Shown here in pieces: positions 59,580 to 64,000 of a DNA stretch of 64,000 bases (positions within the stretch are counted from its first letter, which is position 1; each line of letters starts with the position of its first letter). The stretch is from IMG/VR virus record IMGVR_UViG_2565956614_000003; one strand, 5' to 3'. This stretch comes from a virus (lineage: Duplodnaviria; Heunggongvirae; Uroviricota; Caudoviricetes). Under the pieces are notes generated by a model. It saw only the letters and a list, made by a program, of their open reading frames with translations, was not told the origin of the DNA and did not search any database. The position numbers were made by a program, and so were the translations under genes.

Positions 59580-60623
59580 TTAACCTATTGCTACTGGTTT
59601 TAACAAACCAGCATCAAGTAGCTTGCGAGTTAACCACTGCTGGCCTTTACCCGTTAATTGGGGCGTCAGCCGTATCTGGTAGCCATTTTCATCATCCAGC
59701 ACCACTTCTTTCACCGTGAAATACCCGGCGTTAATGTACTGCTGGCGCGGTACGTTTTTGCGCGCACCAAAAGCCATGAGAATGCCGTTCTGGCGCAACC
59801 ATGAGAAAAGGGCGTTTTGCTTAAGTCCAACGACCTTTGCAAAGTTCCCGATCAGGATTCCATTAGCCACTGATACCCGGTCGGCAAAATCGACTTTAGG
59901 GGCTGCGGCCACCAGCTGTTGTTCCAGCTGCAATTTCTGTTCTGCCAACTCGGCAGCCAGGCGTAGGGCTTCTGGTAATGTTTGGGGGATCGATGGGGTA
60001 GGGGAGTTTGCCTGCTGCAATTCTTCCAGTTTGTCGATCAGCGAACGGCGGACCGCTTTCGATTCGCGCGCGGCGACTCGCAGGGCTTGTTTGTAGGTCA
60101 TGGTTATGACAACCATAGGCGTACCGCCACCTGGCGGCACGGTTGCACTTTTTGTGTAACCGTCCTCACCTTCTAATTCGTCGAGTATTTTTTCGATGAA
60201 TTTGTTGTTCCGAACCTCTGGTTCCCCACATAACTTACGCGCTTCATTGACCATCTTTAACAGTGTCAGGCTGTCGATTGTGTCTCCGGTGGTGGGGATG
60301 ACATTCACGGCTGGTGCTGGCGTTGCTGAAGCAACAGGTGCTGGTTTTTTAACATTCAAATTATTACTGGTCATTCTATGTGCCTCCTTTCTCATTTCTG
60401 CTGCCACCGTTGCGTAACGTAGACGTCCTTGTTCAATCAAATAATCCCTGATCTCGGCTATCAGTAGCCTGTTGATCACAGCCTTATCTGTTCGGGTATA
60501 AAAACGCCTGGTTATCATGAAATAGTTGGCAATTGCGCCGGGGATCTCCCGTGTCGGTATACAGGCAGTATGCAGGGCGATCGCTTCGGCTATGTCATTA
60601 CGGGTGACGAGAGGTTTTTTCAT
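59580..60623 (-). CDS. ant: Ant antirepressor (canonical immI copy)
   Basis: 347 aa; translationally coupled to icd (ATGA overlap); ANT-type C-terminal domain. Confidence 0.8.
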   Translation of the reverse strand: MKKPLVTRNDIAEAIALHTACIPTREIPGAIANYFMITRRFYTRTDKAVINRLLIAEIRDYLIEQGRLRYATVAAEMRKEAHRMTSNNLNVKKPAPVASATPAPAVNVIPTTGDTIDSLTLLKMVNEARKLCGEPEVRNNKFIEKILDELEGEDGYTKSATVPPGGGTPMVVITMTYKQALRVAARESKAVRRSLIDKLEELQQANSPTPSIPQTLPEALRLAAELAEQKLQLEQQLVAAAPKVDFADRVSVANGILIGNFAKVVGLKQNALFSWLRQNGILMAFGARKNVPRQQYINAGYFTVKEVVLDDENGYQIRLTPQLTGKGQQWLTRKLLDAGLLKPVAIG

Positions 60624-60841
60624 AAACCCCCCTGAACGTCGGCAGAGAAGGGGAGGCTCCAGTAACTAAGTGAATTGCGCGAGTTAGTTGAAAAACGGGC
60701 AGTAAAAATGCAGGGGCCATCAGGCAATTGAGAGCGTGCTTCGTCTTCAGTTGCTGCGATAACGAAGTGATAGTGGTGTTTTTTACAGGAATAGAAACGC
60801 CAGATGAATTCTGGGCGTGCGCAAGGATTGGCATTAACCAT
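60620..60841 (-). CDS. icd: Icd, inhibitor of cell division
   Basis: 73 aa; directly upstream of ant. Confidence 0.75.
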   Translation of the reverse strand: MVNANPCARPEFIWRFYSCKKHHYHFVIAATEDEARSQLPDGPCIFTARFSTNSRNSLSYWSLPFSADVQGGL

Positions 60842-60859
60842 AGTTACGGCCTCACAATC

Positions 60860-61100
60860 AGGTTTAACAACCTGCTACCCGCTGCTAAACAGGTGGCAGG
60901 ACGTGACGGGGTTAGCAGACTGGCGATTGTGAAACCAGCAGGCCGAAGCCTCCCCATCACGCCCCACCATAATTTGGGCGTAACGCGGTTTTACGGACAC
61001 AAAAATACCGCAATATCGGATATCTGCGGCTGTCCGCACAATCATTCAGGCTGCTAAACCCGGTCGCAGAATTTGCTACGACGGCGGAACTATAAGCCTG
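60860..61100 (-). ncRNA. c4 antisense repressor RNA region (exact ends not determined)
   Basis: Non-coding stretch between the immI operator and icd, where c4 lies in P1. Confidence 0.4.
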
Positions 61101-61156
61101 AACGATTAAAAGGTCAATATGATGCGAAAAGATAGCATTCGTGACTTAAAAATACA

Positions 61157-61173
61157 AATTTATTAGAGCATTA
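61157..61173. promoter_or_regulatory. C1 operator upstream of immI
   Basis: AAATTTATTAGAGCATT, 16/17. Confidence 0.7.
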
Positions 61174-61268
61174 TCTGCTTAATAAATACACAGTTGGATC
61201 TAATAACCTCTTTTTTTTAAAGGCGAAAATATGTACCCTAAATGGGTTATAAGGCAGGTGAGGTTATA

Positions 61269-61400
61269 ATGAGAAAACTATTACTATCGTTATTATTTAT
61301 GGCTGGGACTGTTAATGCAGCATCAAGCGTAAAGGAGATTTGTACCGATTATACGAAATACCTTTGGCAAGTTTACGCCTTTGCGATCAATGACTATTAA
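61269..61400 (+). CDS. small secreted peptide (simA position)
   Basis: 43 aa with N-terminal signal-like segment; GTGAGG Shine-Dalgarno; AT-rich. Confidence 0.4.
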   Translation: MRKLLLSLLFMAGTVNAASSVKEICTDYTKYLWQVYAFAINDY

Positions 61401-61421
61401 TCCATGCGTAGGAGTGGATTT

Positions 61422-61739
61422 ATGCTGATTCGTTTGTTTTTAGTGCTTTCCTTTTTAACATTTAATGTTTTTGCTGATGAAGTTGACTTTTCGAAGGTAG
61501 ATTGTAATTCAGTGGAAACAAGAAAAGCTCTTATTGAAGAATATAACGAAATATTATCGTCATATGGAATAACAGTGGTTGATTCTTATAATCAAAAAAC
61601 TATTCAGAAAGGAATAAATAAACTGGTCTGTTATGGGGTTTACCAATATTCAGATGGCTCTTCGGAGTATGTTATTTATAAAGCATACCCAAATAGTCTT
61701 GGTGAATTAATTAGTGAGTTTAAACCGATTAATGAGTGA
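61422..61739 (+). CDS. secreted protein (simB position)
   Basis: 105 aa from ATG 61422 (GGAGTGG Shine-Dalgarno); signal peptide MLIRLFLVLSFLTFNVFA. Confidence 0.5.
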   Translation: MLIRLFLVLSFLTFNVFADEVDFSKVDCNSVETRKALIEEYNEILSSYGITVVDSYNQKTIQKGINKLVCYGVYQYSDGSSEYVIYKAYPNSLGELISEFKPINE

Positions 61740-61746
61740 ATGGAAA

Positions 61747-62526
61747 ATGAAATTATTTAATGTAATAACATTTTGTTGTGCTATTTTTGCTGGAAGCGCG
61801 ATAGCTGATAATAAATTGCCAGATTGGCTTTCTACCTCAAAGAAAGATTATGATTTAGTAAGGGCATTCTATTTGTCTGGATTTGCTTCGAAAGCAATGA
61901 ACAATCAATTTGGTTATCATTTGCCATCTGAGTTGGTTAATGATTTTAAAGATAATGAATTTGCTGCTCAGGAAAAATGGAACACAATTCCAATTGTGTA
62001 TGGTGAAATAAAATCCATAAGAATGGTGAATAATAAACCAATTGTAGAGTTATTTACTCCAGGGGAAAATGCAACGCCACTAAATTATATCAAATTGAAA
62101 ATATTGGATTCAAAGCAAGACTCTCTGTTAAAACTAAAAAAAGGGGATGATATATATGCAGTGTGCTCAGGTGCTAATTTTAGCTTAGTGCCAATTCTGA
62201 GCAACTGCACTCCTGCAACAGACGTCATTGATGCTGCACTCTCTTTTTCTGGTGAATATATGTTCCCTGCTTTTGATTCTTTTTCGCCTACTAAGCAAAA
62301 CGTCAAATATATATTCACAAATCAAGATCCTGTTCAGATGATGAATTTTATAGGGTACCTATCCTTAGTCGATACAACGAAGGATAAGAAAAAAATGGAT
62401 ATGGTTCGTAAGTGTACGCCTTGGAAGCCGGAATGTTCACAACAATTCGTTGATGTAATGGAAGGATTTGATAGCATCATGTATAAATATGAGGGAGAAT
62501 TTAAAAATTACATAGAATTAAAATAG
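61747..62526 (+). CDS. superinfection-exclusion-like periplasmic protein (simC position)
   Basis: 259 aa; signal peptide MKLFNVITFCCAIFAGSAIA; AT-rich. Confidence 0.55.
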   Translation: MKLFNVITFCCAIFAGSAIADNKLPDWLSTSKKDYDLVRAFYLSGFASKAMNNQFGYHLPSELVNDFKDNEFAAQEKWNTIPIVYGEIKSIRMVNNKPIVELFTPGENATPLNYIKLKILDSKQDSLLKLKKGDDIYAVCSGANFSLVPILSNCTPATDVIDAALSFSGEYMFPAFDSFSPTKQNVKYIFTNQDPVQMMNFIGYLSLVDTTKDKKKMDMVRKCTPWKPECSQQFVDVMEGFDSIMYKYEGEFKNYIELK

Positions 62527-62554
62527 TATTTGAAAGGATAGTCAATTTAAGTTT

Positions 62555-62606
62555 AAAAAAACGCCCATTAAAGGGCGTTTTATTGTTTTACTCAAAACAA
62601 CCTGAC
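62555..62606 (+). repeat. terminator-containing direct repeat, copy 1
   Basis: AAAAAAACGCCCATTAAAGGGCGTTTTATTGTTTTACTCAAAACAACCTGA, near-identical to 63949..64000. Confidence 0.7.
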
Positions 62607-62772
62607 TCAAAGCAACCTGATTGTGTGATAACCATATGATACTCCTCATTCCATCTACACTACTTGCTCTAACTTAATGATACCATATTACTCCCAGACG
62701 GCAATATTCCCACTCAATGGACAAATGACTACTCGTAGAATCGGTTAACACACCAGATTCTACGAGGTTTCA

Positions 62773-62993
62773 ATGACACCACGACAATTACTCGAAGACG
62801 TCAAATCCCTCTTGGGTCAATGGTTGGAGATTCTTGGTGGTATGCCTTTTGGCAGGATGCAGCAGATTCAAATGCTAATGTGATTGATGCTTATGTTGAT
62901 AATGAAAAAATTGCCACATTCCCTCTTTCTGGGCTAAGTAAGTTATATCAACAAGCTAAAAACGATGGGTGCTTAAAGCGAGGCGATTAATTT
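62773..62993 (+). pseudogene. possible frameshifted small ORF remnant
   Basis: Two adjacent short ORFs joinable by a single -1 shift around 62880. Confidence 0.2.
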
Positions 62994-63043
62994 TTTATTG
63001 CAAATTTAACGTAACCCATAAAGCGATTATGGGTTACAAAATA

Positions 63044-63937
63044 TTAAGAGGTTGTGTTATAACAGGCTGTTTCTTCAAAGCAATGGGTCAGGTTATTAAT
63101 CACAGGCTCTCCTTTCTCGTGTCTGAGAATAAGAGAACCTCCATTAGTAGACCATTTATCTGAAACAGCGACAAAATTACAGAAGCAGCTACTCCCTGAA
63201 ATTTCTCTTGCAATTCTTATAAAATGAAATGCTCTAACTTCGAGACCTGGAACAATTTGCCCAAGACATTCTCTCATTGAATCTTCATCAAAGTCTCCAT
63301 TTATTATTCCTGAACAGATAAACTCATAATAATTAAGAACGAAGAACATATCATTACCTGCTGATATGTATTCATCATGGACCTTCTTATTTTTTAAATC
63401 TTTATCATTTGGGACAAGTCTTTGTTTGGCAATAATTTCATTTATAGTTTTTCTAAGCCCGAACGCATTCGCTACCGATGAGACTTTTTTGTGAAATAAT
63501 TCACTATTTCTTTGATTCATTAGTGTATTTAAGGTGTGTGATTTTCTTGCGGCTACTTTACTCACAGTAGCCTGGACCCACCACCCAGAACCAAGTAGCA
63601 CAGAACTGATAAGTAAAGCAATTGTGGATTGGTATACATCACCATATAAATAATATAAGATAAATACACTATATAGTGTTACACCAAAGATTAAAGCTAT
63701 AATGGTAATCCCATCGTTTGTTTCTGGATATTTTTTTGCTATCTTTTCCTTTATCGTTATGCTGATAAATACGGAGAAGAACGCAAACATTAAGAATGGT
63801 AAAACTTCATCGAGAGAAAAAGATAATATTTTCTTGATAATATCTTCTCGAGATTCAAATATCATGAAAAAAAGTAATGAGAGAAAAAAAGTTAAGTGAG
63901 TATATTTATGTTTTATGTATTTCTGTAAAGAATGCAT
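63044..63937 (-). CDS. AT-rich hypothetical membrane protein (four N-terminal transmembrane helices plus ~170-aa soluble domain)
   Basis: 297-codon ORF; GC clearly below the window average; lies between the two direct repeats. Confidence 0.65.
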   Translation of the reverse strand: MHSLQKYIKHKYTHLTFFLSLLFFMIFESREDIIKKILSFSLDEVLPFLMFAFFSVFISITIKEKIAKKYPETNDGITIIALIFGVTLYSVFILYYLYGDVYQSTIALLISSVLLGSGWWVQATVSKVAARKSHTLNTLMNQRNSELFHKKVSSVANAFGLRKTINEIIAKQRLVPNDKDLKNKKVHDEYISAGNDMFFVLNYYEFICSGIINGDFDEDSMRECLGQIVPGLEVRAFHFIRIAREISGSSCFCNFVAVSDKWSTNGGSLILRHEKGEPVINNLTHCFEETACYNTTS

Positions 63938-63948
63938 TTTAAATCCTA

Positions 63949-64000
63949 AAAAAATACGCCCATTAAAGGGCGTTTTATTGTTTTACTCAAAACAACCTGA
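63949..64000 (+). repeat. terminator-containing direct repeat, copy 2 (runs to the window edge)
   Basis: AAAAAATACGCCCATTAAAGGGCGTTTTATTGTTTTACTCAAAACAACCTGA. Confidence 0.7.

Follow-up and report, generated by a model that had tools for sequence, protein, structure and literature searches.

The 64,000-nt stretch of DNA analysed here (the window) belongs to a P1-like phage-plasmid and includes its sim (superimmunity) locus, located between the immI C4 RNA and the late promoter LPsit. The sim locus is one of eight known variable regions in P1-like phage-plasmids (variable region 4; PMC9603915). In the window the resident simABC genes are followed by an oppositely transcribed gene of the DUF4760 family, which is flanked by two copies of a direct repeat. 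The features of the locus are:

61242-62526, plus strand: simABC block, assigned by collinearity with P1 and CP099053; resident, left-hand module of the stacked locus
61242-61400, plus strand: simA, in the left-hand module
61404-61739, plus strand: simB, in the left-hand module
61714-62526, plus strand: simC ORF, in the left-hand module
62555-62813, plus strand: left copy of a 259-bp segment, with terminator hairpin core (62561-62578), LPsit copy and pmgC start
62723-62741, plus strand: copy of the LPsit late promoter, with -22 box AAATGACTA and -10 box TAGAAT
62773-62809, plus strand: pmgC' stub, with ATG at 62773; the first 40 nt (13 codons) of pmgC, counted to the T/G position
62809/62810: novel joint J2, where pmgC ...AAATCCC is joined to TCTTGGGTCAATGG..., codon ~102 of a gene for a 158-aa protein
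62810-62990, plus strand: 3' remnant of this 158-aa signal-peptide protein gene, a pseudogene fragment with a 56-aa ORF (62820-62990)
63011-63037: hairpin with an 11-bp stem, separating the DUF4760 gene from the convergent remnant of the 158-aa gene
63044-63937, minus strand: DUF4760-family gene, 297 aa, ATG start (Pfam PF15956, phrog_21275)
63950-64000, plus strand: right copy of the 259-bp segment as far as the window shows it, with terminator hairpin core (63956-63973) and 50/51 identity to the left copy

Positions 60500-62813 are collinear with c4-simA-simB-simC of P1 (95.8% identity) and with CP099053 (98.7%), and in both the same region continues straight into pmgC. The interval between the repeats, the cassette, holds as ORFs the DUF4760 gene and two gene remnants only. 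Rfam detected no RNA family within it, the sole RNA being the expected C4 RNA upstream. An earlier note on this DNA had pointed to frameshifted ORF remnants, and these can now be named as the pmgC stub fused out of frame and the last 56 codons of the 158-aa gene. The note had also called the 297-aa gene AT-rich. This holds against the window as a whole (G+C 0.33 versus 0.46), and the repeat and the ORF remnants likewise lie at about 33% G+C, but the neighbouring simABC genes are equally AT-rich (0.33).

The direct repeat visible in the window measures 51 bp (62555-62605 and 63950-64000; 50 of 51 positions identical), and its 45-nt core (62561-62605, 63956-64000) occurs exactly twice in the window and not once in 100 shuffles. 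Each copy contains a G+C-rich hairpin with A and T runs on either side, terminator-like on both strands. The description of near-identical, terminator-containing repeats of about 50 bp is confirmed, whereas their interpretation as cassette boundaries is not: the repeat is resident P1 sequence duplicated over 259 bp, and the true left boundary is the joint in the pmgC stub. The 259-bp segment takes in the terminator of simC, LPsit and the opening 40 nt of pmgC. Its left copy matches the single-copy simC-pmgC intergenic region in P1 and CP099053, as well as the segment directly upstream of the real pmgC in NZ_CP100532 (5230-5488, 99.2%). This plasmid is 100% identical to positions 62721-64000 of the window and then continues into pmgC-tub-pmgB-sit. 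The right copy comprises 51 bp up to the end of the window, its full 259-bp extent being taken from NZ_CP100532; it presumably continues into LPsit and an intact pmgC.

J2 was resolved to the nucleotide in a three-way alignment that set the window against the two parental contexts found in L004, a locus that carries the right-hand module in un-duplicated form. In the pmgC alignment (P1, L001, L003, L004) identity ends after ...GTCAAATCCC, and microhomology at J2 amounts to at most 3 nt (CTT). From the left, the pmgC' stub reads on across the joint as a 36-aa out-of-frame fusion ORF (62773-62883). To the right, the 56-aa remnant matches positions 103-158 of 158 in phrog_3429 (E 5e-26) and corresponds in alignment to the C-terminal end of the full-length gene for WP_001057312 (L004, 3705-4181). 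The hairpin at 63011-63037 has fold energies of -14.7 and -15.6 kcal/mol on the two strands (z -4.0 and -4.7) and is terminator-like on the minus strand; it is also present in the un-duplicated module and is likely a bidirectional terminator.

Complete E. coli plasmids with the un-duplicated module number 34, and in them a full-length 158-aa gene directly adjoins the same DUF4760 gene. The order of the module is 116-aa transmembrane (TM) protein, 158-aa exported protein and, on the opposite strand, the DUF4760 gene, followed by terminator, LPsit and pmgC. Positions 62810-64000 of the window are collinear (97.6%) with L004, which has the full-length 158-aa gene and no duplication. With modules such as that of NZ_CP058684 (WP_032192786, 'DUF4760 domain-containing protein') the window shares the DUF4760 gene at 97.6% DNA identity, the downstream hairpin and, on the upstream side of the gene, terminator-LPsit-pmgC. 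In contrast to them, it is missing the 116-aa gene along with two thirds of the 158-aa gene, has the pmgC' stub and the duplicated 259-bp segment in their place, and carries an allele that differs at 19 codons (14 synonymous, five non-synonymous). The cassette is, to judge from these alignments, the truncated remainder of another P1-like sim-locus module. The proposal of a horizontally acquired cassette is therefore right in that an accessory module came from another P1-like plasmid, but not in that it formed a discrete unit bounded by repeats.

Considering the un-duplicated module in 34 plasmids together with the single repeat copy in P1 and CP099053, the sim locus of the window very probably consists of two alternative cargo modules brought into tandem by illegitimate recombination, followed by homologous reshuffling. 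The source of the right-hand module would be another P1-like element. An illegitimate event would have joined pmgC nt 40 of one genome to the interior of the other module, thereby duplicating terminator-LPsit-pmgC', truncating the 158-aa gene and leaving the DUF4760 gene intact; later homologous exchange inside the duplicated segment would have moved the unit behind different left-hand modules. The window itself is of the CP099053 simABC type up to the joint and identical to the NZ_CP100532 type from 62721 on. On this account the repeats are a by-product of recombination, neither attachment site nor target-site duplication. RecA-mediated recombination between them could delete the insert.

An AT-rich accessory gene bracketed by direct repeats would also be expected of a mobile cassette that had entered by transposition or through site-specific recombination; the 51-bp repeats would then be att sites, a target duplication or the ends of the element. 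This reading is effectively refuted by the nature of the repeat, 259 bp of resident P1 sequence in which a promoter and part of a structural gene (40 nt) are included, and by the left edge of the foreign DNA, which falls within the repeat, at pmgC nt 40, instead of coinciding with a repeat end. Moreover, the interval encodes no transposase or recombinase, its inverted repeats are limited to the terminator palindromes with no terminal ones among them, and the same DNA exists without duplication in the 34 plasmids. That the duplication is an assembly or sequencing artefact, as a second copy abutting the window edge and visible only in part might suggest, is scarcely credible: the joint and both copies recur in five complete plasmids, sequenced and assembled independently, whose sources were poultry, hens and humans in different countries. 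The identical joint is present in NZ_CP100532, NZ_CP069679, CP098993, NZ_OY757122 and EC23. The earlier note had proposed checking insert-free P1-like genomes for exactly one remaining repeat copy, and P1 and CP099053, from which the DUF4760 gene is absent, indeed have exactly one copy and no insert. Nor is the gene universal: with 46 carriers among about 509 P1-like elements from complete E. coli genomes, it is by its distribution accessory.

A longer stacked form with another joint, J1, is present in seven complete E. coli plasmids and J2 in three; in PLSDB, J2 is found in four plasmids, where every left copy measures just 93 bp and lies behind a different module. The exact arrangement of the window (simABC, 259 bp and J2) has no record in PLSDB, INPHARED or the complete E. 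coli RefSeq genomes. The breakpoint in pmgC is common to J1 and J2, but 21 codons separate the DUF4760 alleles that go with them, so either event may have come first. A simple deletion between direct repeats as the route from J1 to J2 was rejected, as no exact microhomology fits, and the allele divergence argues against the sampled J1 plasmids as parents of J2. Overall, the locus is a mosaic of the ordinary kind that contains an orphan gene of interest. It provides a nucleotide-level view of how P1-like phage-plasmids may diversify the superimmunity locus by stacking cargo modules, beyond swapping them: illegitimate joints would duplicate the conserved late-promoter boundary, and homologous exchange in the duplication would spread the unit to other backgrounds.

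The 297-aa minus-strand gene described in the earlier note is an intact ORF. Its four predicted TM helices (residues about 14-28, 44-64, 76-97 and 104-123) stood up as well, as all four are hydrophobic and helical in the AlphaFold model, though only two pass a strict Kyte-Doolittle cut-off. They lead into an all-helical domain (residues ~120-297), modelled by AF2 with a pLDDT of 95.7 compared with 81.6 for the full-length protein. The N-terminus, the TM2-TM3 loop and the segment after TM4 are rich in Lys/Arg, and by the positive-inside rule an N-in/C-in topology with a cytoplasmic domain is predicted. The soluble domain had been credited with no recognisable motif; it does match Pfam DUF4760 (PF15956; residues 120-262, 52.3 bits against a cut-off of 25, E 9e-14), although that family is itself uncharacterised. 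All 83 aligned relatives match PF15956 too, and the protein covers positions 1-273 of 273 of phrog_21275, a phage protein family of unknown function (E 1.7e-193). Near-invariant residues of the domain are H134, T135, R143, N202, E205 and D217.

The ORF is intact in 46 of 46 E. coli records, and the gene is, as far as the allele comparison tells, under purifying selection. It has also stayed intact where its neighbours were deleted (in the window and in L001) or decayed (in L006), which suggests a stand-alone unit. On its own strand the ATG is preceded, at a distance of 15 nt, by a terminator hairpin. The sole promoter-like site is found upstream of this hairpin, and no sigma-70-like promoter was detected between hairpin and ATG. 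Since the hairpin separates the promoter-like site from the start codon, expression is only putative.

The DUF4760 family has 705 cluster representatives at E <= 0.001, and its hosts include E. coli, Pseudomonas and both alpha- and beta-proteobacteria. A close relative follows directly after the primase in an Erwinia P4-like satellite, a position described as a minor defence hotspot (PMC13586616). Others lie between lysis genes and integrase in Pseudomonas prophages, adjoin integrases elsewhere or, in one case, occupy the end of phage Riah, and one homologue resides in a Pseudomonas island with Mrr, PD-(D/E)XK, HNH and Xre/ParS genes. DUF4760 genes also recur in the tables that Rousset et al. 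2022 give for the P2 old/tin hotspot, where they are listed with StbA/Plasmid_stab_B partition genes and not with defence genes (PMC9122126). At 15 distant family loci, an ad hoc tyrosine-integrase HMM found no integrase within 8 kb and a tRNA scan found one tRNA; mobile-element linkage therefore applies to the close four-TM subfamily only. No family among the 5027 component models of PADLOC-DB 2.0 matched at E <= 1, NCBIfam returned noise only, a PDB sequence search with a 17-member profile returned TM-helix noise only, and Foldseek against viral structures retrieved one probable family member without assigned function and nothing else. Within these searches no informative fold or sequence relative was found, and full-text literature on DUF4760 or PF15956 held one incidental table entry, with nothing functional and no experiment.

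The genomic context, with its hotspots, prophage ends and defence island, favours an anti-phage role, according to which the DUF4760 protein would be an inner-membrane protein made by the lysogen and protecting it against other phages. We consider this role a serious possibility that falls just short of probable, counting against it the PADLOC result, the lack of informative relatives, the hairpin before the ATG and the company of partition genes in P2. Joined with the stacked-module origin, it forms the best overall explanation, which we regard as likely. As for mechanism, our tentative preference, itself on the doubtful side, is a sensor plus effector: the conserved cytoplasmic helical domain would sense some cue of infection, upon which the four TM helices would impair the membrane, leading to abortive infection. 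In lambda RexA/RexB and in the TM effectors of signalling defence systems, a multi-TM part is coupled to a cytoplasmic sensing part. The likeness proposed here is that of a prophage-encoded, lysogen-expressed multi-TM protein with a cytoplasmic sensor; there is, however, no sequence or fold relationship to these systems and, unlike signalling defence systems, the DUF4760 protein consists of one polypeptide, and the locus encodes no signal-generating enzyme as its partner.

The main rival to the sensor-plus-effector mechanism is classical superinfection exclusion, a constitutive block of phage genome entry at the inner membrane that would be the membrane-level counterpart of periplasmic SimC. 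The gene shares with simABC the slot between C4/immI and LPsit-pmgC, the AT-richness and envelope-associated cargo, and the locus has historically been connected with the blocking of superinfecting P1. All alternative cargo of this locus encodes exported or membrane proteins (SimB/SimC, the 116-aa TM protein, 158/159-aa signal-peptide proteins and an SH3 protein), and in other phages the family occupies 'moron' positions at prophage ends. Exclusion nevertheless seems unlikely to us. The prediction puts the large conserved domain in the cytoplasm instead of the periplasm, phage-specific entry blockers do not usually have a host span as wide as E. coli, Pseudomonas and alpha- and beta-proteobacteria, and there is no similarity to SimC or to any PADLOC exclusion model. 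Indeed, the protein is unrelated to SimA, SimB and SimC (best BLASTP match to the SimC of the window, E 0.45) and differs from SimC by the predicted lack of a signal peptide; its gene is transcribed in the opposite direction and was added to simABC here instead of replacing it.

It is also possible, and about as doubtful as the preferred mechanism, that the gene has no anti-phage role. It might serve lysogen fitness or membrane homeostasis, assist in plasmid maintenance, or ride along as a selfish passenger in an AT-rich hot spot that permits recombination. Partition genes as companions in the P2 tables would fit such a role, as would distant members without obvious mobile-element context and the fact that neither defence models nor literature support defence. 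This reading is less easily reconciled with purifying selection and an intact gene in all carriers, with the homologue in a defence-island neighbourhood, and with the repeated presence at hotspots where most tested unknown genes proved defensive, as did 6/8 in P4 satellites (PMC13586616). Like the P2 and P4 hotspots (PMC9122126; PMC13586616), the sim locus is a fixed slot between conserved genes in which many alternative cargo sets are swapped by recombination. The DUF4760 genes of the P2 and P4 hotspots are catalogue entries only. The hotspot literature consulted for this comparison contains no analysis of the P1 sim slot as a defence hotspot. The gene is a compact stand-alone candidate from an unstudied family that recurs at hotspots for accessory genes in four kinds of temperate element and is absent from current defence catalogues. 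If it does confer phage resistance, it would represent a new single-gene membrane system and place the P1 sim slot among the defence hotspots, comparable to those of P2 and P4.

A long shot would take the sensor idea further. The DUF4760 domain might be a prokaryotic or viral counterpart of the EP domain (PF18117) of plant EDS1/PAD4/SAG101, serving as a receptor that is tethered to the membrane and recognises an infection signal, either a small molecule or a protein, with the sim-locus gene as founder of a new single-gene anti-phage family. To our knowledge, the EP domain has so far been called unique to plants. Such a sensor, fused to a four-TM effector, would then recur in P1, P2, P4-like and Pseudomonas prophage hotspots.

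An HEPN-type abortive-infection RNase (Rx4-6H) was considered as well. The protein contains R143-x5-H149, but H149 is replaced by N, Y, V or I in homologues and the assignment was rejected. The invariant H134, for its part, sits in an R131-x2-H context.

Two copies of a direct repeat flank the DUF4760 gene, as the earlier note had described: 62555-62605 and 63950-64000 are identical at 50 of 51 positions, and their 45-nt core occurs exactly twice in the 64 kb and never in 100 shuffles. Within each copy, a G+C-rich hairpin (ACGCCC-ATTAAA-GGGCGT) stands between a run of A and a run of T and has the score of an intrinsic terminator in both orientations. Homology of the window to P1 and CP099053 (98.7%) outlasts the 51-bp repeat and ends at 62813, 40 nt into pmgC. 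In these two genomes, insert-free P1-like relatives of the kind with which a comparison had been suggested, exactly one terminator copy is present and is followed by pmgC. In NZ_CP100532, which is 100% identical to window 62721-64000, the right copy is complete, at 259 bp, and leads into an intact pmgC-tub-pmgB-sit operon. The repeat is a 259-bp duplication whose left copy ends in a novel joint. Within its sit gene (transglycosylase / tail-ruler), NZ_CP100532 also has a tandem repeat of ~299 bp with 79% identity (L001 7716-8014, 8013-8311).

The window is collinear with P1 (NC_005856) over 60500-62813, through ant, icd, C4 RNA, simA, simB, simC, the simC-pmgC intergenic region and the start of pmgC (~40-41 nt). 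Two RNA elements were found in this part:

60889-60974, minus strand: C4 antisense RNA (Rfam, 69.6 bits)
61043-61095, minus strand: a1/b1 target element of C4, P1 immI region (55.5 bits)

An isrK-like match at 61001-61082 on the minus strand scored 43.7, below the gathering score of 50, and SimC (61714-62526) gave a weak match to the tRNA_anti-like OB-fold family (E 0.0011; 19 bits, under the cut-off of 23.5). P1-like phage-plasmids have eight highly variable regions of low GC, and the sim region is among them (PMC9603915). In P1, the simC-pmgC intergenic region is the site of the Lpa-dependent late promoter LPsit, both boxes of which are conserved in the window at 62723-62741, and in a comparison of P1-like plasmids the variable locus was bounded on its right by LPsit itself, which is conserved. 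At least five alternative cargo sets occupy the sim slot of P1-like plasmids (L001 2809-3994; L004 3332-4181; L006 1538-3711; L018 2256-4214):

Set 1: simABC
Set 2: [216 aa][159 aa]
Set 3: [116 aa TM][158 aa] and DUF4760
Set 4: [116 aa TM][158 aa] and a 344-aa SH3-domain protein
Set 5: [172 aa][168 aa][357 aa SH3]

The 344-aa SH3-domain gene of other plasmids fills the slot taken by DUF4760 in the window. The 159-aa and 158-aa proteins are paralogues (37% identity), and for the 216-aa and 172-aa proteins the matches to PTP-like phytase stayed below threshold (E 7e-6 and 2e-5).

From 62810, the window corresponds to the interior of the 158-aa signal-peptide gene (WP_001057312), at 97.6%. This joint, J2, at 62809/62810, reads ...GTCAAATCCC on the pmgC side and TCTTGGGTCAATGG... 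on the other, with microhomology of at most 3 nt. In NZ_CP058684 and many other P1-like plasmids, the 158-aa gene adjoins the same DUF4760 gene, followed by terminator, LPsit and pmgC without duplication. Short plus-strand ORFs accompany the DUF4760 ORF between the repeat copies, and the frameshifted remnants perceived there can now be named:

pmgC stub: 13 codons, running on as a 36-aa fusion ORF
158-aa gene remnant: last 56 codons (phrog_3429 positions 103-158, E 5e-26)

The idea of a horizontally acquired cassette therefore holds in part: the gene is accessory, being absent from P1 and CP099053, but the repeats do not bound a cassette, since they are a 259-bp duplication with its joint at pmgC nt 40. 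What looked like a cassette is a scar of recombination in a locus known to be variable, and this origin of the repeat-gene structure is well supported. Transposition and site-specific insertion were rejected because no recombinase or transposase gene lies between the repeats and the edge of the foreign DNA does not coincide with a repeat boundary. Late in infection, transcription from the left LPsit copy would run into the stub of pmgC and the remnant gene, toward a strong hairpin at 63011-63037 that faces it; we infer that the late operon behind the right copy stays intact. Repeats of 259 bp would permit RecA-dependent loss of the unit, and its persistence in several lineages despite this route suggests selection for it.

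Among 5,426 complete E. coli genomes, a P1-like region is present in ~509 and the DUF4760 gene in 46, always plasmid-borne (46/46) and full length (46/46). The un-duplicated [116 aa TM][158 aa][DUF4760] module is found in 34 of these carriers. Seven have J1, the joint of a longer stacked form; here it is the 3' end of the 116-aa gene that follows the same pmgC stub, and the 158-aa gene is complete. Three have J2; PLSDB holds four J2 plasmids. In every J2 plasmid found, the left copy is just 93 bp, from LPsit to pmgC nt 40, and in NZ_CP100532, the one J2 plasmid inspected, it sits behind a different left module, [216 aa][159 aa]. No record in PLSDB, INPHARED or the complete E. coli RefSeq genomes combines simABC, the 259-bp copy and J2. 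Up to J2 the window is CP099053-like (one mismatch in 364 nt) and from 62721 on it is NZ_CP100532-like, so that it is best explained by homologous recombination between the two types, with a putative crossover within the shared 93 bp. J1 and J2 have an identical pmgC breakpoint, after nt 40 (window 62809/62810; L014 4089/4090; L015). The DUF4760 alleles of J1 and un-duplicated loci are almost identical, and those of J1 and J2 differ at 21 codons. The common breakpoint despite this divergence might be explained by an ancestor missing from the sample, by gene conversion at a later stage or by a hot spot of recombination at that position.

The intact 297-aa minus-strand ORF reported between the repeats was recovered at 63044-63937, and its AT-richness was confirmed (GC 0.33 vs 0.46 for the window); its simABC neighbours are as AT-rich. 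The whole protein matches phrog_21275, and residues 120-262 match Pfam DUF4760. What had been predicted as four transmembrane helices plus a soluble domain corresponds to four hydrophobic helices and the DUF4760 domain, in an all-helical AlphaFold model (pLDDT 81.6 for the whole protein; 95.7, with pTM 0.88, for the domain alone). Basic residues are concentrated at the N-terminus, in the loop between TM2 and TM3 and right behind TM4, from which an N-in/C-in topology with a cytoplasmic domain is predicted. Close full-length relatives (36-57% identity) from Erwinia, Pseudomonas and metagenomes align from residue 1, which supports the annotated start. When 1.84 billion cluster representatives were searched with a profile, 705 relatives came up at E <= 0.001; across the 83 of them that were aligned, G118, W119, H134, T135, R143, N202, E205, F206, D217 and W262 are near-invariant. 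A HEPN-like R-x5-H in the window's protein was rejected, as it is not conserved among homologues. Compared with the common DUF4760 allele, the window has 14 synonymous and 5 non-synonymous codon differences, a pattern that indicates purifying selection.

In the region upstream of the gene (window 63938-64000; L001 5218-5379), an own-strand terminator hairpin stands 15 nt from the start codon, and the sole promoter-like site, TTGCCG-16-TATCAT with TG just upstream of the -10, is beyond it and outside the window, ~100 nt farther upstream. Expression may occur by read-through only, and this arrangement makes expression the caveat on every functional reading. The CP057476 record annotates a 320-aa form extending across the hairpin.

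The relatives occur in several settings. The Erwinia rhapontici homologue comes directly after the primase gene in a P4-like satellite, which also has AlpA, Ash and Ogr/Delta genes; a minor defence hotspot has been described between primase and att site (PMC13586616). Pseudomonas homologues lie between lysis genes and an integrase or prophage end, or beside an integrase adjoining tRNA-Ser. The homologue of E. coli phage phi467 is flanked by two recombinase genes, and that of phage Riah is at the genome end, past the lysis genes. Because an ad hoc integrase model found no integrase near 15 more distant family loci, we claim a mobile-element association only for the 4-TM subfamily. Around a 337-aa homologue in Pseudomonas sp. 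GM48 (L023 2501-13701) lie genes for Mrr-type and HNH endonucleases, a PD-(D/E)XK nuclease, an exonuclease, DUF5677 and an Xre/ParS-type antitoxin, and the neighbourhood resembles a defence island. Entries in Table S5 of Rousset et al. 2022 (PMC9122126) catalogue DUF4760 with StbA, Plasmid_stab_B and two hypotheticals (WP_001068329 and others) at the E. coli P2 old/tin hotspot, and the DUF4760, StbA and Plasmid_stab_B arrangement is frequent there, with at least 197 mentions.

An anti-phage role is probably the best single class of function for the gene, at a little short of an even chance; a non-defence role is rather unlikely. Within the anti-phage class we tentatively favour an abortive mechanism, a sensor coupled to a membrane effector, which is itself a doubtful proposition; the leaning comes from the predicted cytoplasmic location of the conserved domain, its near-invariant polar residues and the spread of the family across hosts. 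Its main rival, constitutive entry exclusion, is distinctly unlikely. The DUF4760 gene, already annotated, can reasonably be considered a candidate for a new phage-resistance protein encoded by prophages.

Searching PADLOC, NCBIfam and the PDB sequences with the protein returned nothing useful. The DUF4760 domain shows a grey-zone similarity, without sequence support, to the EP domain of the EDS1 family, which has been called unique to that family (bioRxiv 10.1101/572826); we treat this likeness as a lead.
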